Shown one piece after another: positions 6,705 through 58,700 of a stretch of DNA of 64,000 nucleotides. Numbering within the stretch: the first letter of the stretch is position 1; the number at the start of each line of letters is the position of its first letter. The notes beneath the pieces are model-generated. The model made no database searches. It was not told the DNA's origin and was given only the letters and a program-made list of their open reading frames with translations. The stretch is from a virus: the IMG/VR virus record IMGVR_UViG_3300036780_000414, positions 18,796 through 82,795 of that record; one strand, 5' to 3'. The translations under genes were made by a program, and so were the position numbers.

Positions 6705-6709
6705 GGCAC

Positions 6710-6751: not shown

Positions 6752-6770
6752 CGCAGCGCGCTGCCTCGCG

Positions 6771-6941
6771 CTACTTGCCGTGCTTGTTGGCCTCACCGCG
6801 CAGTTCTGCGAGGATTCCGCGGCCCCTGATGACCGCTTTGGTGTCATCTCGGTTACCGTTGTTCTCATGGGCCAGGGCCCTGCGTTCCCTGGGGGTCAGG
6901 TCAGAATCGTCTCTTTCCGGGTGGCTGTCGAAGCCGAACAT
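6771..6941 (-). CDS. 56-aa protein (below ORF-track cutoff), paralog of 7026..7196
   Basis: Manual translation MFGFDSHPERDDSDLTPRERRALAHENNGN...HGK; purine-rich RBS. Confidence 0.7.
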   Translation of the reverse strand: MFGFDSHPERDDSDLTPRERRALAHENNGNRDDTKAVIRGRGILAELRGEANKHGK

Positions 6942-7025
6942 TGTTGACCCCTTTTCTGTAAGGTTGGGTTTCCCTGGGGAAACGAGCCGCGCAAGACCCG
7001 GCTTGTGCGGTGCTCCCGCCGTTTT

Positions 7026-7196
7026 CTACAACTTCCACCACGCTTCGAGGCAGCGTTCCTCGATGGCTGCTTTCACGCCCTTGCCGGTGCCCGTCTTGTC
7101 GTTCTCGTCGAACAGGGCCTTGCGCTCCCTGGGGGTCAGGTCGTCGTCTCCCCGGTCAGGGTTCGGGTCGAACCAGCCGCCCGTTAGTATGCCCAC
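7026..7196 (-). CDS. 56-aa protein (below ORF-track cutoff), paralog of 6771..6941
   Basis: Manual translation MGILTGGWFDPNPDRGDDDLTPRERKALFDEND...WWKL; GAGAGGAG RBS. Confidence 0.7.
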   Translation of the reverse strand: MGILTGGWFDPNPDRGDDDLTPRERKALFDENDKTGTGKGVKAAIEERCLEAWWKL

Positions 7197-7243
7197 TGCC
7201 TGCTCCTCTCCCGGTTTCCCTCTTGTGGCGGGGGCCGCGCCGG

Positions 7244-9829
7244 CTACTTGCCCGGCGGGGGGATCAGGACCGGCAGGACGTCCTCGTCCTTGTCGTCTTC
7301 CCGGCGAAGGGCGGCCTCGTCGCAGCGCATGAGGATCGTGCCTGCCGGGTCGATGTACTCCAGGGTCAGCGCGACGCGCTCCCGTGTGGTGAGCAGCGTG
7401 TTACGCGGGTCACGCGGCGGGAGCTGGATGTGCCGGACGGCGAGTGACATGCGTGCGCTGACCACAGCTGCGCGCTGCTCCCTGGTGCCGATGTTCTCAT
7501 CACCTGTTGCCATGGTGATCAGGGTCGCTGTGTCGAAGTCCTCGACGGTTCCGTTCACTTGACCCTCCCCTCTCTCTGTGTAACGGCATCATACACGTGG
7601 GGAGTAAGGATGTGGCAAACGTCAAGGCCACCGCATATAGCAGGACCCCCGGCCCGTGGAACACCAGCCGGGGGTCCTGTGCCATGCCCCTCATCAGCCA
7701 GCGTACAGCAGCCGCACCCACGTTGCCGCGTACCGGCCCATCGGCTCATCATGCTGCGCGTGCCAGCCCCGGAGGAACTCCGTGATGACGCGGGCGTCCG
7801 GGGCGAGCCCGGCTTCCTCCAGGTCCCCGTACGCGCGGGCGCGCATCGCCGCAGGGAACTCCAGGTCCGCCCGTCCGGGGCCATCAGGCGGGAAGACGGC
7901 GGCCCGCCAGGCCCGCGCAGCGGTCAGCGTCGCCGCGTACACCTCCAAGTCCGGGGCGTCAGCGGTGTGCCTGCGGTTCCGCTCAGCCTTGTCCTTGACG
8001 GAGATGACCAGCTCCACCGCGCTTTCCGCAGCCTCCACCAGGAGGTACGGGTTGAGCTGCCACTGGCGGACGATCCGCGCTTCTGCCCGGTCCATCAGCG
8101 TTCCCTTTCCGGTACCAGCGGTATCAGCTCACCGCCGACCTCGCTGGCGGCGGCCAGCGACACGGCCGGGTACTGGCTGAGGACTGCGCGCAGCAGCTGA
8201 CCGCTTAGCGGCATGTAGGTGTCCGGCCCGACCCTAATCCACTTGTAGCCGTCCACGTCCTCGAACACGGGAAGCCCGGCCGCGAGCGCTTCAGGCTGGA
8301 CTAGCAGCGTGTCGGGCAGCATCCCGTCCGCCCGGTTCATGTGCCGCCCTCCCCGCCTGCCGGGTACCAGCGCTGCCCCTTCGGGTCGGGTACCGCGCGC
8401 ACCTTACCGTCCTTGGCCAGCTCACCGAGGAGCGCCAGCATGAGCGTCATCGGGACTGGCCGGTGCAGCTCACCGATCGGCGGTTCCGGCATCGGCAGGC
8501 CGGGGCTCAGCTGGTAAGCGGTGCGGCCCGGCTGCCCGGTGACGGCGGCCAGGACGAACGCCAGCTGTTCGGAGTGCCGTTCGCGGGGCAGCACGGTTGT
8601 CATGGTGCTACCTCTACTGCGACGACGAACCGCCCGCAGGTTGCGCAGCTGACTCGGATCTTCCCGGCGTAGTAGGTTGCCGTGACCGGCTTGCCGGGGT
8701 GGCACCTGCCGGTCACGGTGAGCGGTGAGTCGTGGGTGGTGTGGTCGCAGAACATGTTGGAGCAGCCCAGCGCGTCCAGGTACTCGCAGCTGACTACTGC
8801 GCCGGCCGGCAGCTGCTCCGGCAGCTGCTGCGGCGTGGGGGTTACGGCCAGCACTTCCCATCCGTCCACGGTGAACAGCTCGCTGCTGCGCATCGCGTCC
8901 GCCGTGGCGTCCGCTACGTCGGTGTCGCTGGTGGCGTCGGAGACTTTGACGGCCCCCGTGACCCTGATCGTCTTCACGGTGCCTCCTGCGGCTGGCCGGT
9001 GCCGGAAAGCTCCGCGTACGCGGTTTTGAGTGCGGTGAGCTGCGGCGTGTCGTGGAAGGTGAGGTACTGGCTGGCGCCCATGCGGATCAGCATGGCCTCT
9101 GCGATCCGCTGCGCGTGCGCCCAGCCCATGTTGGCGAGCGCGTCTTGCAGGTTGACCAGCTGACCGCTGGCCAGCGACGACGCGAGGCGCAGGAACCGCT
9201 TCTCATGGCCTTCCGGGTACAGCTTCGGGTCGCGCACCAGGTTCTGCCATGACTTGATCCACGCGCCGGGCAAGCTCGCATGGTCGGCCATCGAGTAGTG
9301 GGTGTCCAGTACCACGTGCCGGGCGAATGCCCTGGTGCCGGGCAGGTGGGTGAACGTCACCAGGTGCATCGCCGCCTGGCTGGCCGTCACGCCGTCGATC
9401 CGCGCGCCTTCGGCCAGCAGCGCGCACAGCTCCTCACGGGTGCAGCCCTCAACGGGGTCAGTCATCGGACTTGGCTCCTTCCTGGTCGTGCCAGTCTTGC
9501 CATACCTTGCGGGCTTCGCTGGTCGCCCAGCAGCTCCGCGTCTCGATCTCCGCGCCGCACGTGCAGCCGAGCAGCAGGTCACGGTGCTTCCCGGCTGTGG
9601 CCAGGGTCAGCTGGTGCTCCCCCGGCGTTTCTTCGAGCGGCGGCCAGTGCGGCAGGGTCAGCCCGTCCTGCGTCGGCCCTTTCGCCCGTGCCGCGACCAG
9701 CATGGGGTCCGGCAGTGTCCCAGGCTGCCCGTGGCGGAGGAAGCCGAGCCCCTGGGTCAGCAGGTGCAGCATTACCTGCTTCCGCGCCAGTGCGCTCGTG
9801 TCAACTCGCGTCCACGTCACCCGGCTCAC
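7244..9829 (-). other. Run of coupled small hypothetical ORFs (7244-7558, 7694-8095, 8095-8340, 8337-8603 wHTH-like, 8600-8977, 8974-9465, 9458-9829)
   Basis: Mostly abutting or overlapping start/stop codons on the minus strand. Confidence 0.65.
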
Positions 9830-10010
9830 CCCCGAGCGGCGGGAGGATCAGGCCCTTGTCGATCGCGGCGAGCGTCGCGTAACCGTGGCTGATGCGGAGA
9901 AGCGCCGCCGTTTTCTCACCCTTGGTGTACGTGCTGGCCATGGTCAGCTCATGCGCTTCATGCAGCGCCCGTGCCGCGTCAGCGAGGTAGCCGCTGCCGT
10001 CGTAGCTCAC
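9801..10010 (-). CDS. Small helical protein, paralog of 10662..10844
   Basis: GTG overlaps the stop of the upstream gene; YATLAAIDK motif. Confidence 0.65.
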   Translation of the reverse strand: MSYDGSGYLADAARALHEAHELTMASTYTKGEKTAALLRISHGYATLAAIDKGLILPPLGGEPGDVDAS

Positions 10011-10612
10011 TGGGTCACCCCGCGCACGTGCTCGATAACCCAGCCGCCCGCCTGGTGGCCCATGCCGAGCACGTCGACGCGGGCTTGCGGGAACAGCAGG
10101 CTGCGCTCCTTGCACCACGCGGCTGCCAGCAGCAGCACTTCCATGAACGTCTTCTCGCCCAGTTCGTTCAGTGAAGAGAGGTACCGGCCGTCTGCCGCGA
10201 ACTTCAGGTATACGGCCACCAGTTGGTCCCGTTCCTGCGCGACGATGCTGAGGCCGCCGTCGTCGCAGCACCAGCCCCGGTCATGCACGATCAGGCCCGC
10301 CCCGACCAGGTACTCAGCGGCGGCGTCCACCGCGCTGGTAATCCCCGACGCCGGGAACTGCGTCACCTGCACACCGCCGGCGCCGGGCCGCCGTTCTATC
10401 ACCGCGCAGGCCAGCGCCAGGATGTCAGCCTCACTGACCCACAAGCCGGTGACCGGCTTGCCCCTGGCGTTGCGGATGACAACCGGCCACGGTTCCCCGT
10501 TGTCCGGCACCGTGACGCGCAGCGACTGAAGCGGCCGCACCGCGACGCCTGGTGGCGGTGACTCGGCCAGGATGAATACTTCCTGGCCGTGCTCGTTACT
10601 CAGGTTCTCCAT
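10007..10612 (-). CDS. Protein with C-terminal degenerate YraN-like domain
   Basis: AAEYL..AGL.VHDRGW...IVA...LVAV...RVDVLG...IEHVRG; catalytic D and ExK positions substituted. Confidence 0.6.
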   Translation of the reverse strand: MENLSNEHGQEVFILAESPPPGVAVRPLQSLRVTVPDNGEPWPVVIRNARGKPVTGLWVSEADILALACAVIERRPGAGGVQVTQFPASGITSAVDAAAEYLVGAGLIVHDRGWCCDDGGLSIVAQERDQLVAVYLKFAADGRYLSSLNELGEKTFMEVLLLAAAWCKERSLLFPQARVDVLGMGHQAGGWVIEHVRGVTQ

Positions 10613-10661
10613 CGTTCGTTCTCCCTCTCTCAGGGTCACCGGGCGGAGGTGCCCGGTGATG

Positions 10662-10844
10662 TCATAACGGTGACTTCGGGGTAAGCAGCGTTCCGGGTGG
10701 CAGGCGCTTGTCGATCGCGGCGAGGACCGCGTAGACGCGGGCGATGTCGATGTGCGCCTGAGCTGCGCTCCCCGGCGGCAACCCGGCCGCCGCCCGGCTG
10801 GCCTCAGTCAGCGCCTGCTCGGCCATGGCCTCGTACCTGGCCAT
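10662..10844 (-). CDS. Small helical protein, paralog of 9801..10010
   Basis: YAVLAAIDK motif; translationally coupled to the upstream YraN-like gene. Confidence 0.65.
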   Translation of the reverse strand: MARYEAMAEQALTEASRAAAGLPPGSAAQAHIDIARVYAVLAAIDKRLPPGTLLTPKSPL

Positions 10845-46983: not shown

Positions 46984-47002
46984 CACATGTGTGTGGTACT
47001 CT
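46984..47002 (+). promoter_or_regulatory. Repeated phage promoter/operator copy, rightward
   Basis: CCCCAT-TACC-CACATGTG-TGTGG-TACTCT upstream of a GAGAGAGGG RBS. Confidence 0.75.
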
Positions 47003-47057
47003 GTGGGTAGTGGGGCGGTGAGCCCCGCCGACACCCCAGAGAGAGGGCGAAGCACCC

Positions 47058-48368
47058 ATGACGACCCCAGTGACCGACCTCAACGCGGCGTTCGCCGCTG
47101 AGCGCACCGAGCAGATCGGCAAGATCCTGGCGTTCAACGAGGGCATCCCCGGCCGCGCCGAGGCCGCCCGCGAGGCAGCCGAGGGCTACCGGGCCGACTT
47201 CGCGCAACGCGTCGGTGACGGCAAGGTCCGCGACAACGGCGACGGCACGTTCACGGTGACCGACCCCGGCAGCTACGACGACGGCGAGACGCTGCGGATG
47301 CGGCAGCCGCGCGGTTTCGAGCAGGAGCAGCCGATGCCGATGCCGGTCAGCAACCTGGACGAGAGCCGGGGAACCGCCGCCCTCTACACCAGGGTCCCCG
47401 AGTGGCACACCCTCGGCACGGTGATCCGCGCCGGCGTCAGCGACCTGGATGAGGTGCTGCGGCTCGCGCAGATCGACTTCGAGGTCATCAAGCGCTCAGT
47501 CCGCTACTCCGTCGACGACGACGAGATCGCCGCTGAGCTGGCCCGCCCGCTGACGAAGGTGTTCGACGGCCAGTTCGTCACGCTGCGCGCCGACACGATG
47601 GCACCGCTCGGCACGGTCGGCAGCATCTACACCCCCATCCAGAACGGCGACGCGGGCAGGTTCCTCCAGGAAGTCATCGCGACCAACAAGATGGTCTTCG
47701 AGAGCGCCGGCGCGACGTACGGCGGCAAGCACGTGTTCATCGGGATGCGGCTGCCGGAAGACGTGGTGCTCGACCTCGGTGACGGCGTGACCGACGTGAT
47801 CAAGCCGTACCTGTACTGGCTGAACGGCCACGACGGGCGGACCAGCGCGACGGTCGCCGTCACCCCGTGGCGGGCCGCGTGCGGGAATACCGAGCGGTTC
47901 GCGCTGCGTGACGCGGTGGCCCGGTGGCGCACCCGGCACACCACGAACGTGATGGGCGAGGAGCAGGTCAAGGAAGCCCGCCGGACGCTGAACCTGACGG
48001 TCAAGTATTACGAGTCGTTCAAGCGCGAAGGCGAGCTGCTGGCCCGAACCGAGGTCACGAACGCGGACTTCGATGAGCTGATCAAGTCGGTGTACGAGCT
48101 GAAGGACGACGACACCGACCGCAAGAAGGAGTCGTGGAACGCGCGGGCCGGGGTGCTGCAAGAGATGTACCGGGGCGAGTCGGAGAAGCTGGGCCGCACC
48201 GGGTACGCGGCCGAGCGCGCATTCACCGACTACTTCGACCACGTGGCCCCCCGCAAGGGCACCGCTGACGGGATGGCCGCAGCCCGCGCCACCGCCCTGA
48301 TCGAGGGCAGCGACGACCAGGCCAAGACCACCGTTCACAAGAAGCTGCTGACGCTGACGACCCGCTAG
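47058..48368 (+). CDS. DUF932-family phage/plasmid protein
   Basis: WH.LG, LGTVG..Y.PIQN, ESAG...GG.HVF, NGHDG, TP.R..C.NT, RHT motifs. Confidence 0.8.
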   Translation: MTTPVTDLNAAFAAERTEQIGKILAFNEGIPGRAEAAREAAEGYRADFAQRVGDGKVRDNGDGTFTVTDPGSYDDGETLRMRQPRGFEQEQPMPMPVSNLDESRGTAALYTRVPEWHTLGTVIRAGVSDLDEVLRLAQIDFEVIKRSVRYSVDDDEIAAELARPLTKVFDGQFVTLRADTMAPLGTVGSIYTPIQNGDAGRFLQEVIATNKMVFESAGATYGGKHVFIGMRLPEDVVLDLGDGVTDVIKPYLYWLNGHDGRTSATVAVTPWRAACGNTERFALRDAVARWRTRHTTNVMGEEQVKEARRTLNLTVKYYESFKREGELLARTEVTNADFDELIKSVYELKDDDTDRKKESWNARAGVLQEMYRGESEKLGRTGYAAERAFTDYFDHVAPRKGTADGMAAARATALIEGSDDQAKTTVHKKLLTLTTR

Positions 48369-48380
48369 CAGCCCAGGACG

Positions 48381-48457
48381 TGCCCGCCCCCGCTGCGCAC
48401 CAGCGGGGGCGGGCACCAGCTCAGCGGGGCGGCTGCGTACCGGTTAGCCGCCCCGCT
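48381..48457 (+). terminator. Two GC-rich hairpins downstream of DUF932
   Basis: TGCCCGCCCCCGCTG/CAGCGGGGGCGGGCA and CAGCGGGGCGGCT/AGCCGCCCCGCTG. Confidence 0.55.
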
Positions 48458-48502
48458 GCTGTATGTACTGGGTAGAGATCCTGTTGGAGGAGGAGAGGGC
48501 CG

Positions 48503-48835
48503 ATGAGGGAAGTCAGGGCAGGTGAGCCGTTGTTCACCGAGGGTGACGAGCCGGAACGCCTGCTGTTCACTGAGGAGTTCGCGACGCTGCTGGGCGTGAC
48601 CCCGGCGACGCTGCGCGGTTACCATGCGGACGCGCGACGGGCGAGGCGGCTGCGGAAGCCGGCGCACTTCCCGCCGCCGGACGAGGTGGTGCGCCGTACC
48701 AGCATCAAGGCGAACCGGCAGCCGGTCGTGGCGCAGACACCGGTATGGCGGGAGAGCAAGGCGAAGCACTACGCGGACAACCGGCTGGGTCCGGGTGGCC
48801 GCCCCCGCGCGCAGCTCGGCCAGGAAGCCGGCTGA
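48503..48835 (+). CDS. AlpA/MerR-like HTH DNA-binding protein
   Basis: EEFATLLGVTPATLRGY...FPPPD...PVW...R.GPG. Confidence 0.65.
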   Translation: MREVRAGEPLFTEGDEPERLLFTEEFATLLGVTPATLRGYHADARRARRLRKPAHFPPPDEVVRRTSIKANRQPVVAQTPVWRESKAKHYADNRLGPGGRPRAQLGQEAG

Positions 48836-49114
48836 TGGCCAAGGCCGGGAAACGCGCCCGGCACGTGCCGCCCGCCAGCGAGGTCAGGCTAGGTGTGCGC
48901 GCGTACCTGACCGACTGCCTGGCCTACCGGCTGGTACCGAACGCTGAGACAGCGAAGCGGGTGGTCTGGTGCGGCGGCGGCGACCAGGAAGAGAACCGGG
49001 CCGGCTACGCGCTAGTCCAGCGGCTGTACGAGCAGGAGCTGCCAGCGGTGCGGGCGGCCTGGCAGGAACTGCGCGCACTGGACGACAGGAAACGGCGGAA
49101 AGAGGGGGCACACG

Positions 49115-49369
49115 ATGGCACTGGACTGGCAGCCGGCGGCGGGGGCCGGGGTGGAAGTAGCGTTCACGGACCCGCCGGTAAGCGTGCTCGTGTGGCGCAC
49201 CGCGAAGCCTAACGTGATCCTCACGTTCACCCCCGATGAGTGGACCGCGTTTACCGGCGGGGTGCTGAACGGCGAGTTCGACCACTTCGGCGCACAGGAC
49301 GGCGGGCCTGACAGCCCGCAGTTAGAACGGCGGCAAGCTGGCCCCGGTCAGCTTGCCGTTTCCCACTGA
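49115..49369 (+). CDS. DUF397-like protein
   Basis: VEVAF...LTFTPDEWTAF..GV.NGEFD. Confidence 0.65.
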   Translation: MALDWQPAAGAGVEVAFTDPPVSVLVWRTAKPNVILTFTPDEWTAFTGGVLNGEFDHFGAQDGGPDSPQLERRQAGPGQLAVSH

Positions 49370-49939
49370 GAGAGGGAAAACACCGATGACACCGTACGAG
49401 CGGTTGCAGCTGATCCAGCTGACCGAACTCCCGGCGGCGGAACGGCGGGTACGCGAGACCTGCGAGGCGTACACGTGGGCGAAGGCGTTCAAGGACGGCC
49501 TGCGTGACGAGCTGCGCGAGCTGTCCCAGATCCTGCACGACGACGAGACGGGGGCACCCAGTGCCGCTTAACCATAAGGGCATGCAGGCCATCAGGGCGC
49601 GTCACCAGCAGCACACCTGCGCGAGCCACTGCGAACCGGGGATCTGCGTGCACTGCCAGGACAAGTGGCCGTGCGACGCGGTGAAGCTCCTCGACGTGGC
49701 TGCTGCGGCGGCGTACTTCGCTGAGACGTGGGCTGAGCTGATAACGCTGATGCCCGACGAGTACGACTGCACGATGCAGTGCGGCGAGGCTGAGGCGGCA
49801 GCTGGCCTGTACCGGGCACTTGGCGACGGTAAAACAGCCGAAGAGGTCCTTGACGCGCACGCGGCGCACGACACTGAGGAGGACAGCCACTACGAGCGGG
49901 GCGCAGCCGTCATCCGGGCCGCCCGTGAGGAGCAGCAGC

Positions 49940-50572
49940 GTGACCGAGCAGCAGGACGAGGCAGTCCCGTTCCGGGTAGCTGACCAGGAGTACGACCCGG
50001 CGATACCCGTCGACTCAGTCAGCGAGCACCCTAAGAACTACGTGATGGGGGACATCGGGGCCATCAGCGAGTCGATCGACGCGCACGGGTTCTTCGGCGC
50101 GGTCATCGTGCAGCGCAGCAGCCGCCGCATCGTCGCCGGCAACCACCGTCACCGCACCGCGAAAATGAAGGGCGCGAGCACGGTCCCCGGCTTCTGGCTG
50201 GACTGCGACGACGACGAGGCTGAGCGGATCCTGGCGGTAGACAACCGCACCGCCCGCCTGGCAACATTCGACGACGCCGCACTGCTGGACCTGCTGGTCG
50301 GCATCGCGACCAGCAGCGGCGACCTGAAAGGTACCGGGTACGACGGTGACGACCTGGACGACCTGCGGCAGATGCTGACCCCGCCGGACCTGGAAAAGCT
50401 CGGCGGCGGCGGCGGCCCGAAAGACAATGACCTGTGGCCGGTGCTGCGGTTCAAGGTCCCCCCGGCGGTACGCGACCGCTTCTACCAGGCCACCGACCCG
50501 GCCGAGGACCAGACCGACGAGGGCCGGTTCTTCTGGATGCTGCACCAGGTAGACCACCTTGACCCCCGCTGA
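49940..50572 (+). CDS. ParB/Srx N-terminal domain protein
   Basis: HPKN..GDIGAISESI..HGF, IVAGNHR, LAVDNRT; GTG 49940 with GAGGAG RBS. Confidence 0.85.
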   Translation: MTEQQDEAVPFRVADQEYDPAIPVDSVSEHPKNYVMGDIGAISESIDAHGFFGAVIVQRSSRRIVAGNHRHRTAKMKGASTVPGFWLDCDDDEAERILAVDNRTARLATFDDAALLDLLVGIATSSGDLKGTGYDGDDLDDLRQMLTPPDLEKLGGGGGPKDNDLWPVLRFKVPPAVRDRFYQATDPAEDQTDEGRFFWMLHQVDHLDPR

Positions 50573-51128
50573 GCTGGCCGCCACGGCGGTACGCGACCAT
50601 CACGCCATCCAGCAGCCCGAGGAGCTGACCCGGCTGATCAGCCGGCTGCGCCGCCTCCGCCCGCTCCGCACGGTGATCGAGATCGGCTGCGACGCCGGCG
50701 GGACACTGTGGGCATGGCGGCAGGTATGCCCCGTGGTGTACGGCATCACCCTGCCGGTGTCCCCGCCGGGTGAGGGCCTGTTCCCGCAGGGCAGGCACCC
50801 GCTGGAAACGCACGGCGCACTCGTGCACCTGGGAGACAGCCACGATGCCGGGTCGGTTTTCTGGCTGGGCGCACAGCTGGGCTTCGGCAAGCAGGCTGAC
50901 TTCCTGTTCATCGACGGTGACCACAGCCCCGAGGGTGTCCTGGCCGACTTCGAGGACTACCGGCACCTTGTCCGCCCCGGCGGGCTCATTGCCCTGGACG
51001 ACGTACTCAACCCGGACCTGGACGTGCGGAAGGCGTGGACGCACATCACCAGCCTGCCGCTGCACACGGAAGTGATCAGCGCGGGGAAGATGCCAGCGGG
51101 GATCGGCCTGGTGCATGCACCAGCCTGA
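50559..51128 (+). CDS. Class I SAM-dependent methyltransferase (Methyltransf_24-like)
   Basis: VIEIGCDAGGT, GDS, DFLFIDGDHS...DF...LVRPGGLIALDD. Confidence 0.85.
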   Translation: MTPAELAATAVRDHHAIQQPEELTRLISRLRRLRPLRTVIEIGCDAGGTLWAWRQVCPVVYGITLPVSPPGEGLFPQGRHPLETHGALVHLGDSHDAGSVFWLGAQLGFGKQADFLFIDGDHSPEGVLADFEDYRHLVRPGGLIALDDVLNPDLDVRKAWTHITSLPLHTEVISAGKMPAGIGLVHAPA

Positions 51129-52053
51129 CCCGGTAGCCCGCATGCTGGTCAGCTACTACTACCGGGGAAAGTGTGACCTGGGCCAGATAGTCGACATGGA
51201 AGCTGCGCTGGGCAGGGCAGGCGGCCGGCTGGAGCTGTTCGCGGACTCCGGGGCGTTTTCGGCGTTCACCCAGCGGCGCGGCGGTGCGAGCATCAAACGG
51301 GAAGAGTACGCCGCCTGGCTGACGGAGTGGCAGGACCAGCTGAAGATCATGGTCAACCTGGACGTGATCGGTGACGCGAAGGCCAGCGCCCGCAACCAGC
51401 TGTGGCTTGAGGACCGGGGCCTCCCGGTCTTGCCGGTCTACCACATGCAGTCACCGCTGAGTGAGCTGGAGGCGCTGTGCCGCGACTACGACTACATCTG
51501 CATCGGCGGCACCGCATCGCTGACGGGGACAAAGAAGCTCGCCGCGACCGCCCGCGCGATGCTGATCGCCCGTGAGCACGGCACCCGCGTGCACGGGCTC
51601 GGCAGGTCCGCGTCGGAGGAGCTGGCTTCCCTGCCGTTCTACTCTGCCGACTCGACCACGTGGACATACGGGGCTCGCTTCGGCTCACTCCAGGTGTTCA
51701 CCGGCAGCCGGGTCGCTTCCCTGCCCGTGCAGGAAGCAGTCAGGCACCCTGTCCTGATCCGCTCGCACGGGGCCGACCCGCAGCGGATGGCTGTCCCGGC
51801 GTACGGCAACCGCGGAAAGAGCCTGGGGATCATGAAAGACCAGGGTGACTACCGGCGGGAAGTGGACGAGTCGGTGTTCGTGGCCGCTGTCGCGTGGAAG
51901 CGGCTCGAAGCGCACCTCCGCGCACGGCACCGTGTTCCCCCGCCGCCAGGGCAGGAGTCAACGGGGACGAACCTGTGGCTGGCGGACAACGCCATCCGGC
52001 ACTTCGCGGTTCTGGTCCGCGCGGTCAGCTGGCTAGCTGAGACCAGCACATGA
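51115..52053 (+). CDS. dpdA: DpdA/TGT-like 7-deazaguanine DNA transglycosylase, copy 1
   Basis: FADSGAFS, NLDVIGD, PVYH, IGG, VHGLG, SADSTTW TGT-fold motifs; sits in a Que operon. Confidence 0.75.
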   Translation: MHQPDPVARMLVSYYYRGKCDLGQIVDMEAALGRAGGRLELFADSGAFSAFTQRRGGASIKREEYAAWLTEWQDQLKIMVNLDVIGDAKASARNQLWLEDRGLPVLPVYHMQSPLSELEALCRDYDYICIGGTASLTGTKKLAATARAMLIAREHGTRVHGLGRSASEELASLPFYSADSTTWTYGARFGSLQVFTGSRVASLPVQEAVRHPVLIRSHGADPQRMAVPAYGNRGKSLGIMKDQGDYRREVDESVFVAAVAWKRLEAHLRARHRVPPPPGQESTGTNLWLADNAIRHFAVLVRAVSWLAETST

Positions 52054-53024
52054 CACCGCACCCGGATCCCGTGGCCCGGATGCTGGTCAGCTACTACTAC
52101 TGGCGCAAGCGGGACCTTTCGCAGCTCGACAAGATGGCCGCCCCGCTCACCGCTGTGGGTGGTCACCTGGAGCTGTTCGCTGACTCGGGGGCATTCAGCG
52201 CGTACACGCAGCGGGGCGGCGGCGCGGCGATCCGGCGGGAAGAGTACGCGGCGTGGCTGACGGAATGGCAACCGCGCCTGCGGGTCATGGTCAACCTGGA
52301 CGTGATCGGCGATGCCGCCGGCAGCGCCCGCAACCAGCTGTGGCTTGAGAACCGGGGACTGAACGTGACGCCGGTCTACCACATGCAGTCCCCCGTGGCG
52401 GAGCTGGAGGCGCTGTGCCGCGATTACAGGTACATCTGCGTCGGCGGGACCGCCAGCCTGACCGGCGCACAGAAAACCGCTGCGACCGCACGGGCGATGA
52501 TCGTCGCCCGTGAGCACGGGACCGCCGTCCACGGCCTCGGCCGCTCCTCAGCTGACGAGCTGTCCGCGATCGGCTTCTACTCCGTTGACTCAACCACGTG
52601 GATGCAGGCCGCCCGTTACGGGGACATTCACCTGTTCGACGGCCGGACGCTGCGCCGCCTGCCGATCCGCAAGGCGGTCAGCGAACCCGCGCTGATCCGC
52701 CGGCACGGCGGCGACCCGCAGCGGATGTGCCGCCCCGACTACGCGAACCTCCAGTACCGCAACCGCAAGGACCCCGCCCAGTACGCCTCTTACCGCAGGG
52801 AGAACGATGAGGTCGTTTTCATCGCCGGGGTCGCGTGGAAGCGGTTCGAAGCGCACCTGCGCCGCCGTCACCAGGTGCCTCCTCCCCCAGGTCACGAGAC
52901 AAACGGCACAAATGTGTGGTTCGCTGACGACAACATGCTGCACCAGCAGCAGATGATCGCGGCCGTCGCGTGGCTCGCGTCATCACCGTTACGGCCCGGC
53001 GCTAACTGGGAGGGAAAGCGATGA
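52050..53024 (+). CDS. dpdA: DpdA/TGT-like 7-deazaguanine DNA transglycosylase, copy 2
   Basis: Same motifs intact (FADSGAFS, NLDVIGD, VHGLG, SVDSTTW); full-length paralog of copy 1. Confidence 0.75.
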   Translation: MTPHPDPVARMLVSYYYWRKRDLSQLDKMAAPLTAVGGHLELFADSGAFSAYTQRGGGAAIRREEYAAWLTEWQPRLRVMVNLDVIGDAAGSARNQLWLENRGLNVTPVYHMQSPVAELEALCRDYRYICVGGTASLTGAQKTAATARAMIVAREHGTAVHGLGRSSADELSAIGFYSVDSTTWMQAARYGDIHLFDGRTLRRLPIRKAVSEPALIRRHGGDPQRMCRPDYANLQYRNRKDPAQYASYRRENDEVVFIAGVAWKRFEAHLRRRHQVPPPPGHETNGTNVWFADDNMLHQQQMIAAVAWLASSPLRPGANWEGKR

Positions 53025-54007
53025 AGCCGTCAGAGCATTTCCGGTTCACCGTGCAGGAGCACGACCTGCTGACAGGGGCACTCGCGGTACTGCCGGACAT
53101 CGGCGTGCTGATGCAGAAGACACCGAGCACCACGCTCAAGCGGTGGGGGGCAGTCCTCCACCATGACGACCGGACACTCCGGGCGCTGCGCGGCGTACCC
53201 GGCCTGGGCGCGGCGTGGGCAGCCCACATGGCCCAGGACGAGATCAGCCACCCACCGGGTACCTACGGGCTACCTGAAGCGGCAGGCGTCCCCCAGGACC
53301 CGGTGATCGCGTACTCAGGCGGACCTGACTCGTTCATCGCCTGGCGGCTCCTCGGCCACCCGGAAGCGGTCTACCTGGACTTCGGCAACCAGGCCGGCCA
53401 GGTGGAGAAGTACCGGGTGCAGCTGGCCAGCGACAAGTTCGCTGACCCGGACCGGCCGGTTACCTTCATGCCCAGCTACAGCATGCGGGAACTGTCGACC
53501 GGCTGGATCCCGTACCGGAACCTCCGCATCATCCTCGCGTGCGCTGAGGTCGCCCCCGATGTCGTCCTCGCCCGGATCGCCGAATGGGGGCCGGATAAGA
53601 ACCCCGGCTTCTTCCGCCGCACCGAACGGCTGCTCGCCAGCTCACGCGGCGGCCACTTCCAGGCTGCCGCGAACCTCCCGAGGGTCCGCATCCACACACC
53701 GTTCGGTCACCTCACCAAGACGCAGCTGGTCCGCCGCTACCTCCAGGTGTTCGGCCCGGACGCCGCCGACGACCTGGTCCAGTACACCTGGTCCTGCTAC
53801 GGCCCAGGCCCGCTGTTCTGCGGCCAGTGCGGCGGCTGCTGGTGCCGGTGGGTGGCGTTCCACCAGAACGGCATCCTCGAAGAGGACCGCTACGCGCAGC
53901 ACCCGGAACGCGCCGCCTACTACCGGCGGCTGGACTGGCGGGACTTCCGCCCCGGCATGGCCGGGATGTACCTCAAGCGGGCGTGGGAAATGCGGGGGCT
54001 GGGCTGA
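53021..54007 (+). CDS. queC: QueC-like 7-cyano-7-deazaguanine synthase with ~90-aa N-terminal extension
   Basis: PP-loop YSGGPDS, IPYRN, TPF..LTK, TWSCY...CGQCGGC. Confidence 0.85.
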   Translation: MKPSEHFRFTVQEHDLLTGALAVLPDIGVLMQKTPSTTLKRWGAVLHHDDRTLRALRGVPGLGAAWAAHMAQDEISHPPGTYGLPEAAGVPQDPVIAYSGGPDSFIAWRLLGHPEAVYLDFGNQAGQVEKYRVQLASDKFADPDRPVTFMPSYSMRELSTGWIPYRNLRIILACAEVAPDVVLARIAEWGPDKNPGFFRRTERLLASSRGGHFQAAANLPRVRIHTPFGHLTKTQLVRRYLQVFGPDAADDLVQYTWSCYGPGPLFCGQCGGCWCRWVAFHQNGILEEDRYAQHPERAAYYRRLDWRDFRPGMAGMYLKRAWEMRGLG

Positions 54008-54411
54008 TGCCCGAGATCACGAAGACGTTCAGGTTCGCCGCGTCGCACCGGCTCGACGGCCTGCCGCCGGACCACAAGTGCATGCGGCTGCACGGCCACA
54101 ACTACATGGTGATCGTGTCGCTGCGCTCACCGAGCCTGGACAGCGCGGGCATGGTGATGGACTACGGGCAGCTGGCGCCGTTCGCTGACTGGCTGGAAGG
54201 CACCCTCGACCACCGGCACCTGGGCGGCGGCGACGTGTTCGACGCGGACGGGAAGCTCACCGACCCCGCCGTCCTGCCGTTCATCCCGACAGCGGAGAAC
54301 CTGGCCGGGCACCTGCTGGGCATCGCCAGGGAGATGTTCGGCCACTTCGTCACGGCGGTGGAGGTACGCGAGACCGACAACGTGACCGCGACCGCGAGGG
54401 CCGCCCGGTGA
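54007..54411 (+). CDS. queD: 6-carboxytetrahydropterin synthase
   Basis: FAASHRL, KCMRLHGHNY, GMVMDY, LDHRHL, PTAEN, VRET. Confidence 0.93.
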   Translation: MPEITKTFRFAASHRLDGLPPDHKCMRLHGHNYMVIVSLRSPSLDSAGMVMDYGQLAPFADWLEGTLDHRHLGGGDVFDADGKLTDPAVLPFIPTAENLAGHLLGIAREMFGHFVTAVEVRETDNVTATARAAR

Positions 54412-55178
54412 ACGCCACGGCGGGCACTGAGCCCACCGTCCGTGACCTGCTGGTGTCGGAGGAGTTCACCGCGCCGCAAGGTGAGGGCCCGCACATGGGC
54501 CGCCCGATGTACTGGGTCCGCCTCGGCGGCTGCGGCCTGGAGTGCACCTGGTGCGATGAGCCGCAGACGTGGGTGTTCGACGAACGGCACAGGAAGATGC
54601 ACGAGGGCGGAAAAGCGTACGACCCGAAGGCGGAGCTGTCCCGCGTGACGGTGGAGAACCTGGCCAGCCGCATCGCCGTGACGAACTACACGACGGTGGC
54701 GGTGACCGGCGGGGAGCCGCTTCTCCAGCAGGAAGCCGTGGGAGCGCTGATCGACCATCCCCTCATGGGAGGGATGTCGTTCGAGTTCGAGACGGCGGGG
54801 GTGATCACCCCGTGGCGGCTGGCTGGCTACGGCAACGTGCGGTTCAACGTCAGCCCGAAGCTGGCCTCCTCGGGCAACCCCGTGGCGAAACGGCGCAACG
54901 ACGCCGCCATCGCCGCGCTGCGCGCACTGGACTCGGTGTTCAAGTTCGTCTTGGACACCAGGCAGAACGGCATGTGGCAGGCAGACCTGACCGAAGTTGA
55001 GTACCTGACCCGCCAGTGGGACATCCCGCCCGGCCGCGTCTGGGTGATGCCGTGCGGGACCACGCCAGGCGAGGTCACGGAGGGGATGCTGCTGCTGGAG
55101 CCGGTCGCGCTGGCCCGCCAGTGGAACCTGAGCAGCCGCCTCCAGGTGTTCATGCACGGCGACGCCAGGGGCTTCTGA
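54408..55178 (+). CDS. queE: 7-carboxy-7-deazaguanine synthase (radical SAM)
   Basis: QGEG..G, VRLGGCGLECTWCD, TGGEPLLQ, ET.G, VSPKL. Confidence 0.93.
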   Translation: MNATAGTEPTVRDLLVSEEFTAPQGEGPHMGRPMYWVRLGGCGLECTWCDEPQTWVFDERHRKMHEGGKAYDPKAELSRVTVENLASRIAVTNYTTVAVTGGEPLLQQEAVGALIDHPLMGGMSFEFETAGVITPWRLAGYGNVRFNVSPKLASSGNPVAKRRNDAAIAALRALDSVFKFVLDTRQNGMWQADLTEVEYLTRQWDIPPGRVWVMPCGTTPGEVTEGMLLLEPVALARQWNLSSRLQVFMHGDARGF

Positions 55179-55181
55179 GCC

Positions 55182-55751
55182 GTGGACTACGCGCTAGCCG
55201 AAGATTCCGCGCGCTTCCTGCTGGGGCACCTGGGGATCAGGTGCGAAGGTGAGCTTGACCGGACGCCGATGCGCCTGGTGCACGCCCTCGCGGAACTGAC
55301 CGCCAGCCTCCGTGACGGCTTCAACCCGGCTGAGCTGCTGGCCCGCCAGTTCAGCCCGCCCGGTGACGTACCGCAGATGATCGTGGTGGAGAACATCGCG
55401 TTCACCTCGCTGTGCGAGCACCACGTCATGCCGTTCACCGGCCTGGCAACAGTCGCCTACCTGCCCTCACCGGGGGCCAGGATAGTCGGCGTGTCCAAGA
55501 TCCCCCGCCTGGTAGAGGGCTTCGCCCGCCGGCCTCAGATGCAGGAACGGCTCGGCTACCAGGTGACGGAGGCGATAGGCAAGTACCTGGACGTGCAGGG
55601 TGCCGGCTGCACGATCCGCGGCGAGCACACGTGCATGACGCTGCGCGGCGCCTGCGCAGCAGGCACGTCAATGCTCACCAACCACCTGACCGGATGTTTC
55701 TTCGACTCTCCCCCGGTCAGGGCCGAGTTCCTGGCATTGACCAGGCCGTGA
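55182..55751 (+). CDS. folE: GTP cyclohydrolase I
   Basis: TP.R, SLCEHH..PF.G, GVSKIPR, RRPQMQERL, HTCMTLRG. Confidence 0.93.
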   Translation: MDYALAEDSARFLLGHLGIRCEGELDRTPMRLVHALAELTASLRDGFNPAELLARQFSPPGDVPQMIVVENIAFTSLCEHHVMPFTGLATVAYLPSPGARIVGVSKIPRLVEGFARRPQMQERLGYQVTEAIGKYLDVQGAGCTIRGEHTCMTLRGACAAGTSMLTNHLTGCFFDSPPVRAEFLALTRP

Positions 55752-58700
55752 CGCTATCCTCACTTGTGAGAGAAGGAAGCAGCATGTCACCTGCTAACTA
55801 CGGGCCGATCCACGGGGAGCACGGTACAGCCGTCCCGCTCGTCGTCCCGCCGGCACCTGAACTGGCCACGCTCATGATGCACTGGCTGGTCACCGCCCCC
55901 GGCTTCAGCACCACCCGCAGCCAGTGGGTCATCGCCGTCAGCACCACAGCGGACCTGCCCGGCTTCAGGCCGTGCAAGCTCGACTTCGACGAGGCCACCC
56001 ACGAGATCGTCATCATGCCGCTCGACCCGGAAGGCGGCGAGTACTCCGGGCACATGCTGGTCCGCCTCCTGCTGGCCTGCGAGCTGCCGCTGGGCACCGC
56101 CGACGCCGTCCGCGTGCAGGTACGCGCAGCTGAGCATGAGGTGTCCGAGCTGGCCCCGGTCCTCGCCGCCGCGATCGTCCGGCACGGCTGGACTCCCGAG
56201 GTAACCGCTGACCCGGCGGGCGTCCGCCGGCAATGGCAGGAGTTCATCGAGGACAACCTGTCCGCGATCCGCAGCACCCGGCAGCACCCGCAGCAGCGTC
56301 CCGGCGTGAGCGTGCCGCCAGCCCCGGTGACCCTCGCGCCGCCCGGAAGCCGGGGGAAGCCATGACCGGCAAGCACACTCACGCGTGGGAGCCCGCCACG
56401 GTGCCCTGCGGCACGTGCGCGCCGCACCCGGCCGTCCGCTGCCAGGACCCCGCCTGCCCGCTGCACGCCCACCCGATCGACGTGACGAAGTACGGCGACC
56501 CGCGTGTCCTTGAGGTGAAGCTCACCGCGAAGCGGGGCGAGCTAGCCAGGGTGTCCGACCTGGCCCGCGCGGTTTACAGGGAATGGCAGGACCGCAGCCA
56601 GGCGCAAGACACCATCGGCCTTGAGCTGCGCGCACTGGAGCAGCACTACCGTCAGGTGGTGGCCGTCCATGAGTGACCGCAGGCGCGGCGGCCTTGAGCG
56701 GGAGCTGTACGCCGCCGCGCAGCAGGAGACGCTGGACGAGGCGTTCACCGCCCTGGCTAAGGTCGCGAAGGCGCTCGGCGTGTTCGACCTGACGCAGCGG
56801 GCCATCTCGATCGAAGAGGTCGGAGAGCTGATCTGCGCTGAGGCGGAACGGCTGCGGGCACTCCAGCCGGCCGTGATCATCGGCGGCAGGGAGGCAGTCC
56901 AGCTCGGGCAGCAGGGCCTCACCCCGGACACGGCGGCTGCGCTGGTGCTCGGCGCGGGACCGTGGACGGTGCGGTACCAGCTGGCCGACCGGAACGGCCG
57001 GGTCATCGCCGGCAGCGAGGTCGGCCCGCTGGTGAGCGCGGACGACAAGGTGCGCATTGAGTTCGGTGTCACGGACATCCGGGTGGCACTCGGGTGAGCG
57101 AGCCGGCAGAGGGCACGGTGACCACCCGGCGCGGGAAGCGGCCGACGCCGTGGCTGGCCGACCTGGTGGCCGCCGCGTACAGGGAAGATGACGAGGCGAT
57201 AGCGGCCGCCGCCGCCCACCTGGACGCCTCGGAGCGGCGCGACCTGGACCACGCGCTCATGGTGCTGGTCCGCGCGCTGCTCAACCAGCGGATGGGCGCG
57301 TCCGCGCGGCGGCGCATCACGCTGACCGTGGAACCGGAGGACGGATGATCATCGCGGGGATACTGCTGCTGCTCTGCTGCGCGGGCATGGGCGTGCTCGC
57401 AGTACGGAAAGGGATGCTGTGGGAGTGCGCGCACACTCTCGCGGCGCTGGGCGCGCTGGTCGGCGGCACGCGGGTCACGCTCGCGACCGGCTGGTGGGGC
57501 ATCGTGTTCTTCCCGCTGACCTTCCTGGTGACCGGGTGGACGCTGCTGCGCGGGGTGAGGGCTGATGGCTGAGGTATACCGCAGGAAGGCGCTGCGCACA
57601 GACGACAGCGTGACCGTCGCCCCGTACCGGCCGCCGATCGACCGGGCGGCGTTCGGGCTGCTGCGGGAGGTGGCCCGGCTGGCGGCACCGTCCGCGGAAG
57701 TCAGCGAGATCGTGTTCCCGTCCGGCAAGCGGGCACTGGCCGCGTACTGGGTCACCGAGGACGGCCCGGATTACACGACGGTCGAACCGGGTGAGTACCT
57801 GGGCTACTCAGGCGGCAACAGGATCCTGTTCAGCACCGATGACGGTGACCTGGCCCGCTGGTACGAGCACGTCCCGCAGGAGGAACCCGCTGATGGCTAA
57901 GCGGTGGCTTACCGCCTCGGTGGCGGCGCTGGTGCTGATGACGGTCACGGCGGCGGTCGCAGGCTCATGGGTGTGGGCGGTGTTCACCGTCGTGATCCTG
58001 GCGGGGTACGCGCTGCTGATCGCCGTAGCCGGGAAGCGCGGGCGTCCCGGTGGCTGAGCCGTTCGACCTGGAGGCGTTCCTGCTGCGCGTCACCCGCGAC
58101 CAGCAGCCAGGCCCGCGCATGTACCAGCTCCGTGTCCACCCCGGCCTGCTGGCGCAGATCACGGCGGGCGCTGATCCGGCCGTCGTCTCGTGGCCGCACG
58201 CGTACGGGACCGCGTACCTTGTCTCAGACCAGAGCCTCCCCTGGGGCGGCTGGCAGCTGATCGAGCAGGGCCGGATGGTAGCTCACGGTGAGCCGGGTGA
58301 GGACGCGGCGGGCAGGGCCGGCCAGCGCGAGCTGCCGCCGGCCGCTGACCTGGTGGCGCTGATCGAGCGGGCGCTAGCAGACGGGGACAGGGACGCCGGG
58401 ATGGGTGAGATGAGCGGCGGCTGCGAGACGACGCTGCGGCTCGGTTTCGCTGACCTGATGGGGGCTGCCGGTGACGAGCACTGAGTGCGGGTCGTGCCAC
58501 GCGGAAGTTGACTGGGCGCAGAAGTTCCCGCTGGAGCTCAACGACAAGGGCCTGCCGAAGGCCGTTCCGGTGAACCACGGCAGCGCCGGCGACCCGGCCG
58601 GGAAACTTGAGGTGTGGCGTGAGCCGGTCATCGGCACGGCGGACGGCAGGCAGGCCGCGACGGTGCTGTACTTCCGCTACCTGAAAAAAGACGAGACGCC

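Follow-up and report, generated by a model that had tools for sequence, protein, structure and literature searches.

In the viral DNA analysed here, a stretch of 64,000 nucleotides that we call the window, two complete genes for DpdA-like transglycosylases stand in tandem within an operon for preQ0. Judged from their sequences and structure models, both products are phage DpdA-type DNA-guanine transglycosylases (9g/CAjan/Rosebush type, PHROG 887), and we give slightly less than an even chance to the reading that they are two active preQ0 insertases with differing DNA-context preferences. We infer the different contexts from a segment located at the position of the insertion Ins8 and from C-terminal halves that belong to distinct conserved clades. 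The system itself, the phage dPreQ0 operon, is known, and the two-DpdA arrangement is a variant of it; new here are the mosaic types of C-terminal module, the recurrence of tandem DpdA genes, and the finding that a second phage retains the pair. Among the papers listed in a literature search, judged by their titles or the opening of their abstracts, there was no study of DpdA duplication in phages or of two-DpdA phages, nor any on the annotated DpdA genes of the pair in Megan. Neither PMC10516641 nor PMC6884629 uses the terms "two DpdA" or "two copies" in its main text, and the supplements of Hutinet 2019 (Data 1) and Hutinet 2023 (Data S1), which list DpdA-encoding phages, may include two-copy genomes.

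All genes of the operon are on the plus strand, in the order ParB-like, methyltransferase, DpdA, DpdA, QueC, QueD, QueE and FolE. The first gene (49820..50572) encodes a ParB-like protein (PHROG 723 ParB-like, E 1.4e-30), for which the Pfam ParB_N score of 25 bits is slightly below the cut-off of 26.3, and a homologue is present immediately 5' of DpdA in nine of the ten loci compared and also in Rosebush. A SAM-dependent methyltransferase gene (Methyltransf_24; 50559..51128; Pfam PF13578, E 3.4e-10) overlaps both of its neighbours. DpdA copy 1 (51115..52053; 312 aa; PHROG 887, E 4.8e-43) has a common type of C-terminal half, which we call A1-type, and copy 2 (52050..53024; 324 aa; PHROG 887, E 3.5e-41) has a rare one, A2-type; the start of copy 2 overlaps the stop of copy 1 via ATGA. 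The gene for a QueC-like 7-cyano-7-deazaguanine synthase (53021..54007; Pfam QueC, E 1e-9, residues 156-283) has its ribosome-binding site, GGGAGGG, within the 3' end of copy 2, and its product has an N-terminal extension of approximately 95 residues, the full length being kept in the related loci L085, L005 and L006 (65-74%). QueD, of the 6-pyruvoyl-tetrahydropterin synthase family (54007..54411; Pfam PTPS, E 2.3e-26), is read from an internal ATG at 54007, which gives a 134-aa protein alignable from residue 1 in L005. QueE, a radical SAM protein (54408..55178; Pfam Fer4_12, E 3.2e-6; Radical_SAM, E 7.2e-6, below the cut-off), is homologous to Megan QueE, and FolE (55182..55751; Pfam PF01227, E 2.4e-46) is the GTP cyclohydrolase I of the first step of preQ0 synthesis. 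These four genes are all directly 3' of the DpdA pair, with ends overlapping or abutting.

The tandem pair is not an assembly artefact, because positions 50892-53390 of the window are found unbroken, with approximately 95% identity, in a contig of 63,983 bases from another soil study, and a second sequencing run bridges the junction of copy 1 and copy 2. The flanks of the pair are 80-88% identical to that contig, the pair being the best-conserved block between the two phages. Two DpdA copies were found in eight of the 80 related viral loci, as well as in the Microbacterium phages Megan and Nicole72, and all 18 copies examined from nine paired loci retain the three Asp, 17 of them also having H110. 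The closest syntenic relatives (L085, L005, L006, L087 and L007) have one DpdA each, and that they get by with a single enzyme speaks against differing contexts as the role of the pair. When viral contigs were scanned with each protein singly, copy 1 matched a single distant locus and copy 2 matched nothing; scanning of genome contigs gave one locus, in Actinomadura violacea (39%), and a megablast search of the pair against GenBank phages gave no match. The window is from a soil actinophage, and the three sequences that cover 50559-54007 are all soil-metagenome DNA contigs, none being RNA.

The first-pass annotation had described the two genes as twin, intact and DpdA-like, and this is borne out by two open reading frames on the same strand, both matching PHROG 887 and both giving confident models of the TGT fold. 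The AlphaFold2 model of copy 1 (pLDDT 95.9) aligns with human TGT (7nq4_A) over 241 residues with Z 16.5 and an rmsd of 2.9 A, and its fold matches QTRT1 with Z 15.9; the pLDDT of the copy 2 model is 93.9. In Foldseek searches the bacterial DpdA structure 7ui4 ranks fourth for copy 1 and first for copy 2 (E 7.2e-5), and the family profile reaches 7ui4 at E 0.0046, with D44 aligned with Asp95 and D179 with Asp256. Searches of phage records by tblastn gave 245 matches for copy 1 and 234 for copy 2, Rosebush included, and the PADLOC DpdA profile matched copy 2 (E 0.002) and not copy 1. Despite the shared fold, no Pfam family, TGT included, matched either copy at E up to 0.01, and the Zn motif CxCxxC is absent from both copies and from all 105 family members. 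Comparison of copy 1 alone with PDB gave only summed repeat matches to TAL effectors at residues 206-236, which were judged spurious.

Residues D44, G46, D83, H110, G131, H160 and D179 of copy 1 are invariant in 105 relatives, and the equivalents D45, D84, H111 and D180 of copy 2 are likewise invariant. Since both retain the Asp that serves as general acid/base, the Asp and His that bind the base, and the nucleophile Asp, the catalytic sets are complete and both copies are probably catalytically competent. The pocket residues reported for CAjan DpdA, namely Asp63, Ser64, Phe67, Asp105, His132, Gly153, Gly154, Phe189 and Asp206 (PMC7544227), align to D44, S45, F48, D83, H110, G131, G132, L162 and D179 of copy 1, and these nine positions are 9/9 identical between the copies (numbering of copy 2 is +1). 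The earlier proposal that acidic residues occupy the base-binding and catalytic positions of TGT agrees with this invariant Asp set, aligned to both CAjan and 7ui4 DpdA, and the similar base pocket claimed for the two copies agrees with the nine identical positions.

These results bear on two other explanations. We see very little probability that one copy is inactive or acts on tRNA and not on DNA: although databases name the family "queuine tRNA-ribosyltransferase" and phiSM DpdA1 was reported inactive in a heterologous assay (PMC10516641), both copies have full catalytic sets and confident fold models and are without the Pfam TGT match and the Zn motif, the experimentally studied members 9g, CAjan and Rosebush are reported to modify DNA (PMC6884629, PMC7544227), and the mycobacterial hosts of related phages are described as having no Q pathway (Hutinet 2019). 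It is also highly unlikely that the copies insert different bases, e.g., preQ0 and another 7-deazaguanine derivative tied to the adjacent methyltransferase. The base specificity of DpdA can shift or broaden, as VH7D DpdA2 is reported to insert preQ1, preQ0 and CDG (PMC10516641), and the SAM methyltransferase within the operon is unexplained. However, the nine mapped pocket positions are the same in both copies, and the methyltransferase also accompanies the single DpdA of L085 and L005, while it was not found in L006 and L087 and is unannotated in Rosebush. Furthermore, QueF, an amidotransferase and DpdC were not seen among the operon genes scanned, and the PADLOC profiles for DpdC-K gave no matches for the five operon proteins scanned.

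In the proposed function, each copy would remove guanine from double-stranded phage DNA via a covalent Asp-sugar intermediate and would then insert preQ0, which would be supplied by the co-transcribed FolE, QueD, QueE and QueC. Both would use the same base and would accept different guanines, because most of the differences between them fall within the basic segment that follows the nucleophile strand. The two copies together would raise the share and the variety of G sites protected against host restriction.

In a BLASTP alignment, the copies share 199 of 309 residues (64%) with one gap (E 7e-151), and every one of the eight identical blocks and the two divergent strings that the first-pass annotation had pointed out in its end-to-end alignment was recovered. 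Identity is 74% for residues 1-183 and 49% from residue 184 to the end; in the family alignment it is 75% for residues 9-183 (175 columns) and 50% for residues 184-310 (127 columns). The lowest values in 30-residue windows are at 166-195 (47%), 181-210 (40%) and 226-255 (37%), and identity is back up to 73% at residues 256-285. The claim that divergence lies mostly after DSTTW therefore stood as to its location (75% before versus 50% after), whereas the pattern is family-wide and not specific to this pair. An alignment of the copies with dN/dS by region, which had been suggested along with that claim, was run and revealed uneven divergence: dN/dS is 0.37 overall, 0.30 in the N-terminal half and 0.44 in the C-terminal half, and, of 19 windows, it is less than 1 in all 18 in which it has a defined value. 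Both copies are under purifying selection. In the N-terminal half, dN is 0.21 between the copies versus 0.23-0.25 to the single-copy homologue of another phage, and dS between the copies is 0.70; since dS is 0.5-1.3 in all pairs, which is near saturation, ages cannot be ranked. The best direct repeat between the copies is 300 nt with 75% identity. Recent gene conversion was considered as a source of the conserved N-terminal half and was rejected on the grounds that there is no long identical tract and that dS of this half is 0.70.

The variable segment of copy 1 consists of residues 184-250 (51664..51864, plus strand), which form a beta-hairpin, three short helices and a basic loop in the AlphaFold2 model, and that of copy 2 consists of residues 185-252 (52602..52805, plus strand). 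The latter is more basic, with a net charge of +8 (15 Lys+Arg) versus +5 (10 Lys+Arg) in copy 1. The segment sits where bacterial DpdA and TGT carry Ins8, which is reported to contact nucleic acid in both, sequence-specifically in TGT (PMC10164549). Across residues 184-250 the copies are 40% identical. For the N-half identity of 0.76, a family baseline built from single-copy homologues of other loci (202 pairs; match of at least 255 profile positions; 39 rows in total) predicts 0.44 for these residues against the observed 0.40 (z = -0.5). Excess divergence of residues 184-250 as a sign of neofunctionalisation was therefore rejected, and fast divergence after the nucleophile is a property of the whole family, not a peculiarity of this pair. 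Since the segment evolves fast family-wide, its divergence by itself proves little and may reflect low constraint, not new specificity. On the same baseline, L076 is the only other tandem pair with a clear excess (z -3.3); L008 deviates in the other direction (z +2.1), and the L072 pair was left out because of too few aligned columns.

The N- and C-half trees conflict and place the C-terminal halves of the two copies in different clades, indicating that the genes are mosaic. In the C-half tree, copy 2 belongs to a 99/99 clade with the metagenomic proteins P0004, P0006, P0007 and P0014. Residues 185-315 of copy 2 share 85% identity with P0006 and 82% with P0007, and its N-terminal half is only 70-72% identical to them. 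In AU tests, for which the groups were chosen after the trees had been seen, a sister relationship of the two copies was rejected for the C-terminal half (p 0.0014), the N-half grouping was rejected on the C-half data (p 0.0004), and the A2-type clade was rejected on the N-half data (p 0.018). The pair did not arise by local duplication in recent times. Its A2-type C-terminal module would be an old, separately conserved type that became joined to an N-terminal barrel nearer to copy 1 and its relatives. The contigs of P0004, P0006, P0007 and P0014 are 1414-3644 bases long, which is too short to show whether these proteins stand alone, and no second DpdA was matched in them.

A wider reading, which we put forward tentatively and regard as somewhat unlikely, is that residues approximately 184-310 may be a semi-autonomous DNA-recognition module of discrete types that is recombined between barrels, with types stacked in tandem to widen the protected contexts. 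Close relatives of the same type have 54-59% identity in the C-terminal half at 70-74% in the N-terminal half, and those of different types have 47-50% at 66-75%, an excess that is only modest. A strict search for type-specific residues gave five positions, all past residue 183, which are too few for a motif. If this is true, exchange of the module would resemble the way in which restriction-modification methyltransferases swap their target-recognition domains, and the reading of DNA sequence by DpdA could be learned from natural chimeras, which would include the window pair, single-copy relatives and the four A2-type proteins.

The same data can be set against a redundant pair, in which the second copy is kept for dosage, robustness or escape from host factors targeting one variant, and both copies read the same DNA context. 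Identical base pockets, a variable segment no more diverged than the family baseline, and the existence of single-copy relatives are all compatible with this, and we nevertheless consider it unlikely, since the copies are as distant from each other as from the homologue of another phage and yet are both under purifying selection. Duplicates kept simply for dosage tend to be young or to decay. The position of the pair as the best-conserved block between two phages also argues against redundancy, as does the 82-85% conservation of the A2-type module across phages whose N-terminal halves differ more.

Finally, the copies may associate, obligately or by preference, as a hetero-oligomer in which a single DNA-bound complex uses both, which we hold to be clearly unlikely. 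The TGT dimer interface is partly near the Zn subdomain, and the family is without the Zn motif of TGT and bacterial DpdA; all catalytic residues are present in both copies, unlike a pair of catalytic and non-catalytic partners, and close relatives work with one DpdA gene. The ATGA overlap means translational coupling of the copies, which favours equimolar synthesis, and the structure matches include PDB 7ovs and 7b2i of the eukaryotic TGT, which is a QTRT1/QTRT2 heterodimer (PMC10164549). Active forms of TGT are reported to be dimers (Hutinet 2019), whereas bacterial DpdA was monomeric by SEC and crystal-contact analysis (PMC10164549). A complex prediction for copy 1 with copy 2, made without controls, gave no answer (scores 0.00 and 0.00, mark 0.32) and says nothing on binding either way.

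With two putative preQ0 insertases of possibly differing context preference, the locus is a natural experiment on guanine choice by DpdA, as one phage has identical pockets and differences within approximately 70-130 residues, and single-copy and mosaic relatives add to it. If the motifs differ, domain swaps would directly locate the determinants of specificity. How large a share of G is shielded from restriction enzymes and Cas9 is reported to depend on motif frequency (PMC10484667). The window has a G+C content of 68%, and because GA accounts for only 16.7% of its G, a second specificity would matter for the arms race of phage and host and for deazaguanine tools. Should the copies prove redundant, they would represent an ordinary gene duplication within an operon that is already known.

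Among known systems, the closest is the dPreQ0 operon of the Mycobacterium phage Rosebush, which has the same gene order and strand with the ParB-like gene first, and the present operon is that operon plus two genes, i.e., the methyltransferase and the second DpdA. The Rosebush genome is likewise high in G+C, and its DNA is reported to have dPreQ0 on approximately 28% of G (PMC6884629). Rosebush DpdA is homologous to both copies, with 29.7% identity to copy 2 (tblastn) and 33% to copy 1 (alignment). Rosebush has no methyltransferase and only one DpdA, which is 385 aa long and has a longer C-terminal part, whereas the window has two DpdA and the N-terminal extension of QueC. The DpdA proteins of the Escherichia phage CAjan and the Pseudomonas phage iggy are of the same family as the window copies, with one DpdA per phage. 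That of CAjan is without approximately 30 residues of the post-nucleophile hairpin/helix segment present in the window copies. Both are reported to insert preQ0 nearly completely, that of CAjan at GA and GGC (PMC7544227) and that of iggy at GA only (PMC10484667). Since the single DpdA of CAjan serves two motifs, two enzymes are not required for two motifs.

A second tandem arrangement is that of Megan gp2/gp3 (also in Nicole72 and the IMG/VR locus L055), an overlapping DpdA pair immediately 5' of QueC, QueD, QueE and FolE, with the catalytic residues in both copies as in the window pair. The Megan copies group in a clade of their own (100*), with 49% identity between them and 28-36% to the window copies, and their sequences indicate an independent duplication. 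Megan QueC is 455 aa long, and no ParB-like gene was found upstream of the Megan pair. The bacterial DpdA of the Dpd system (Salmonella Montevideo, 7UI4) is a TIM-barrel enzyme that inserts preQ0 into DNA with the same three Asp and His. It is reported to partner the ParB-fold ATPase DpdB (DGQQR motif) and to have a structural Zn site, CXCX2CX22H, which pins Ins8 to the barrel (PMC10164549). The window copies are without this site and their sequence kinship is only remote. A ParB-like gene is adjacent here, and its product is possibly a counterpart of DpdB, although the PADLOC DpdB profile gave no match to it. Two paralogous TGT-fold proteins in one genome, as in the window, are also found in QTRT1/QTRT2. 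In that pair QTRT2 is the non-catalytic partner, whereas neither copy in the window has lost its catalytic residues.

The source record of the window is an 82,795-base IMG/VR provirus with an estimated completeness of 86%, and the G+C content of the window is about 68%. All words sampled from it occurred in just one run, a soil metagenome that may be its source. Two DpdA genes stand in tandem on its plus strand, copy 1 at 51115-52053 (312 aa) and copy 2 at 52050-53024 (324 aa), the start of copy 2 overlapping the stop of copy 1 (ATGA), and the QueC-like gene starts within the final codons of copy 2, preceded by a GGGAGGG site. The two proteins are identical at 199 of 309 residues (64%, one gap, E 7e-151) in pairwise alignment, in which all the long identical blocks quoted in the first-pass annotation were found. 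No Pfam match was obtained for either copy, and PHROG 887 ("queuine tRNA-ribosyltransferase") matched copies 1 and 2 at E 4.8e-43 and 3.5e-41, respectively. Homologues were found by tblastn in 245 (copy 1) and 234 (copy 2) GenBank phage records, every one below 60% identity, with the best matches in Mycobacterium, Arthrobacter and Microbacterium phages, Rosebush among them; the family comprises 4,741 cluster representatives (E <=0.001). AlphaFold2 models of the two copies are confident (pLDDT 95.9 and 93.9) and share one topology. The copy 1 model matches tRNA-guanine transglycosylases with Z 16.5 and rmsd 2.9 A over 241 residues (model residues 4-273), and in Foldseek searches 7ui4, the bacterial DNA preQ0 insertase DpdA, ranks fourth for copy 1 and first for copy 2; the family profile matches 7ui4 at E 0.0046.

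Seven columns are invariant in the alignment of 105 family sequences, namely D44, G46, D83, H110, G131, H160 and D179 in copy 1 numbering, and the same seven are obtained when copy 2 leads the alignment. In profile alignment to 7ui4, D44 and D179 correspond to Asp95 (tag offset removed) and Asp256, which are described as the general acid/base and the nucleophile of bacterial DpdA, with Asp130 and His181 binding the base (PMC10164549). The base pocket was mapped by aligning the DpdA sequences of CAjan and Rosebush with both copies. The predicted CAjan pocket (Asp63, Ser64, Phe67, Asp105, His132, Gly153, Gly154, Phe189 and Asp206; PMC7544227) has the copy 1 counterparts D44, S45, F48, D83, H110, G131, G132, L162 and D179, and all nine positions are identical between the copies. 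Since catalytic and pocket residues are kept and identical, both copies look catalytically competent with one common base pocket, which agrees, as a prediction from sequence, with the earlier proposal that both are active on a similar base. That the copies insert different bases is improbable.

The differences between the copies are concentrated after DSTTW, as the first-pass annotation had noticed: in the family alignment the copies agree at 75% of positions in residues 9-183 and at 50% in residues 184-310 (hereafter N-half and C-half). The lowest-identity windows fall in residues 166-255, and identity returns to 73% at residues 256-285. In the models, the divergent part consists of a hairpin (191-204), three short helices and a loop (226-242), all after the nucleophile strand; it is basic in both copies (net charge +5 in copy 1 and +8 in copy 2) and stands at the position of Ins8, which in bacterial DpdA is part of the DNA-binding crescent (PMC10164549). 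In the regional dN/dS analysis that the annotation had proposed, the N-half has a ratio of 0.30 and the C-half one of 0.44; of 19 windows, 18 have a defined ratio, which never reaches 1 and peaks at 0.84 in residues 211-240. Both DpdA-family genes of the window are intact and constrained, have identical pockets and, to judge from their position, are expressed together with a full set of preQ0 synthesis genes.

In the mechanism that we propose, each copy would act on replicated phage DNA and insert preQ0 through the double displacement by two Asp described for DpdA and TGT (PMC10164549, PMC7544227), and the segment following the nucleophile would set a different DNA-context preference in each copy. 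We tentatively regard such different preferences as the most likely reason for two copies. Phage DpdAs studied so far are described as modifying short motifs almost completely (PMC10484667, PMC7544227), so that coverage is bounded by motif frequency; GA accounts for 16.7% of the G in the window, and GA plus GGC for 27.6%. Several points stand against different contexts. First, the segment diverges about as much as is usual for the family: in a comparison of 202 pairs of single-copy homologues taken from loci elsewhere, an N-half identity of 0.76 predicts an identity of 0.44 for residues 184-250, and 0.40 was observed for the two copies (z -0.5), this segment being fast-evolving throughout the family. 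Among close relatives, C-half identity is 54-59% at N-half identity of 70-74% in same-type comparisons and 47-50% in cross-type comparisons, so the excess C-half divergence is only modest. Second, close kin have one DpdA, and third, the single DpdA of CAjan acts on two motifs (PMC7544227). Redundancy of the copies, or a second copy that lets the phage escape host factors, is unlikely, and it is rather unlikely that the copies form a hetero-oligomer.

The pair was also found outside the source record when contigs of three soil metagenome runs (X1, X2 and X3) were compared over 47000-58000 of the window. A 9,183-base contig of X1, the run from which the window may derive, has 0 differences to the window. 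In X2, from another study, a 63,983-base contig spans 50892-53390 (methyltransferase end, both DpdA genes and QueC start) unbroken, differing by 118 letters and 7 gaps at about 95% identity, and its neighbouring pieces are only about 80-88% identical to the window; X3 comes from that study too, and one of its contigs (332 bases) crosses the junction of the copies with 5 differences. The X2 and X3 contigs show that the pair is real and occurs in another phage, and no block of the region is better conserved. The contrast between the block at about 95% and its flanks at 80-88% suggests that the pair is under strong constraint or has recently been exchanged as one cassette. Another X3 contig, of low depth (3.7), joins copy 1 at about residue 232 (51811) to copy 2 at about residue 227 (52729) with 24 other letters between, which could represent either a hybrid DpdA present as a single copy in a relative or an artefact of assembly.

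The closest syntenic loci (L085, L005, L006, L087 and L007) have one DpdA each in the same slot. Gene order in L085 and L005 is ParB, methyltransferase, DpdA, QueC, QueD, QueE, FolE, and the methyltransferase is absent from L006 and L087, each with a single DpdA, and from Rosebush. The L085 DpdA shares 67.5% identity with copy 1 and 66.2% with copy 2. Its frame (1236-2765) continues for about 190 Arg/Ala/Gly-rich, low-complexity residues past the usual C-terminus, as does that of protein P0003 for about 70 similar residues; these extra residues overlap the QueC gene in another frame and probably reflect either loss of the stop codon or an error of gene calling in high-G+C DNA.

The tree of 63 relatives joins copy 2 to four metagenomic proteins, P0004, P0006, P0007 and P0014 (support 99), and copy 1 falls among the remainder. 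The two halves tell different histories, which explains this separate position. The C-half tree places copy 2 in a 99/99 clade with the same four proteins (A2-type; identities of 85%, 82%, 73% and 70%, with P0006 at 85% and P0007 at 82%), and the N-half tree groups it with copy 1, P0004, P0003, P0005 and L085 (84/99), its N-half being just 70-72% identical to P0006 and P0007. With N-half data, AU tests rejected the A2-type clade (p 0.018), and with C-half data both the N-half group (p 0.0004) and copies 1 and 2 as sisters (p 0.0014); these p-values are indicative only, because the groups were picked after the trees had been inspected. The A2-type C-half is rare, with 4 clusters at least 70% identical among 5.8 billion proteins besides that of the window. 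Since no long identical tract was found between the copies, any exchange must be old, and dS is near saturation in every comparison. We read the pair as two old C-terminal module types joined on related barrels rather than as a young local duplication.

The search returned 80 related viral loci, of which 8 (L008, L014, L015, L055, L065, L072, L076 and L077) have two DpdA ORFs; L014 and L015 look like one and the same sequence, and the count may be too low because some loci end at contig edges. Among the 245 matching GenBank phage records, three have two matching places, belonging to Microbacterium phages Megan (two records) and Nicole72. The tree of paired copies shows several origins: the copies are sisters within L008, L076 and L077, Megan and L055 share one older duplication, and those in L014, L065 and L072 are not sisters. 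Identity between paired copies ranges from 36% to 76%. At L008 (IMGVR_UViG_2863105245_000002, 5995-8377) the order is DpdA, ParB, DpdA, the two DpdA being 69% identical, unlike the window, where the ParB-like gene comes first and the DpdA genes are in tandem. It is very improbable that one copy is inactive or acts on tRNA; against inactivity, catalytic residues are kept almost throughout the 18 copies of nine paired loci (D44, D83 and D179 in 18, H110 in 17, the exception being the second copy of L014). This conservation favours two working enzymes over an enzyme with a dead partner.

The phage dPreQ0 pathway with DpdA is already known, and a tandem DpdA is already annotated in Megan, where gp2 and gp3, both named queuine tRNA-ribosyltransferase, lie just 5' of QueC, QueD, QueE and FolE. 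In the literature that could be searched, we found no paper on two DpdA genes in one phage; the main texts of PMC10516641 and PMC6884629 (Hutinet) contain no mention of two DpdA or two copies, and the supplementary tables of two Hutinet papers may list such genomes. The pair is a clean natural system in which to study the sequence specificity of DpdA.

The operon runs in the order ParB-like gene (49820-50572), Methyltransf_24 SAM methyltransferase (50559-51128, overlapping the ParB-like gene and copy 1), DpdA copies 1 and 2, QueC-like gene (53021-54007), QueD (54007-54411), QueE (54408-55178) and FolE (55182-55751). The methyltransferase, which accompanies a single DpdA in L085 and L005, may be a tailoring enzyme for the base or for DNA. 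In the QueC-like protein, the SGGxDS loop is preceded by an N-terminal extension of about 95 residues that Pfam does not match; it is kept at full length in L085, L005 and L006 (65-74% identity). In L006 (IMGVR_UViG_3300036829_000239, 9267-10832), folE is one 521-aa ORF interrupted in frame by about 330 residues between FTSLC and CEHH, an insert that ends in SHN and contains a LAGLIDADG-like block; judged from these motifs, it looks like an intein in a phage GTP cyclohydrolase I, at a conserved Cys. A ParB-like gene is present at L005, L006, L007, L008, L009, L016, L020, L085, L087 and L091, and lies directly 5' of DpdA in nine of the ten loci compared (the exception being Megan), and also in Rosebush (1-792). 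Since bacterial DpdA is reported to require the ParB-fold ATPase DpdB (PMC10164549), the ParB-like protein may be its phage counterpart; PADLOC gave no DpdB match for it. Both copies differ from bacterial DpdA and TGT, which have a CxCxxC Zn motif, in that this motif is absent from them and from all 105 relatives examined. Among the closest known systems is that of Rosebush, with ParB-like, DpdA, QueC, QueD, QueE and FolE genes in the same order and with dPreQ0 described as replacing about 28% of the G in its DNA (PMC6884629). Because QueF, an amidotransferase and DpdC were not seen among the operon genes scanned, dPreQ0 would by default be the expected product here as well, and the operon of the window corresponds to that of Rosebush with a methyltransferase and a second DpdA added.
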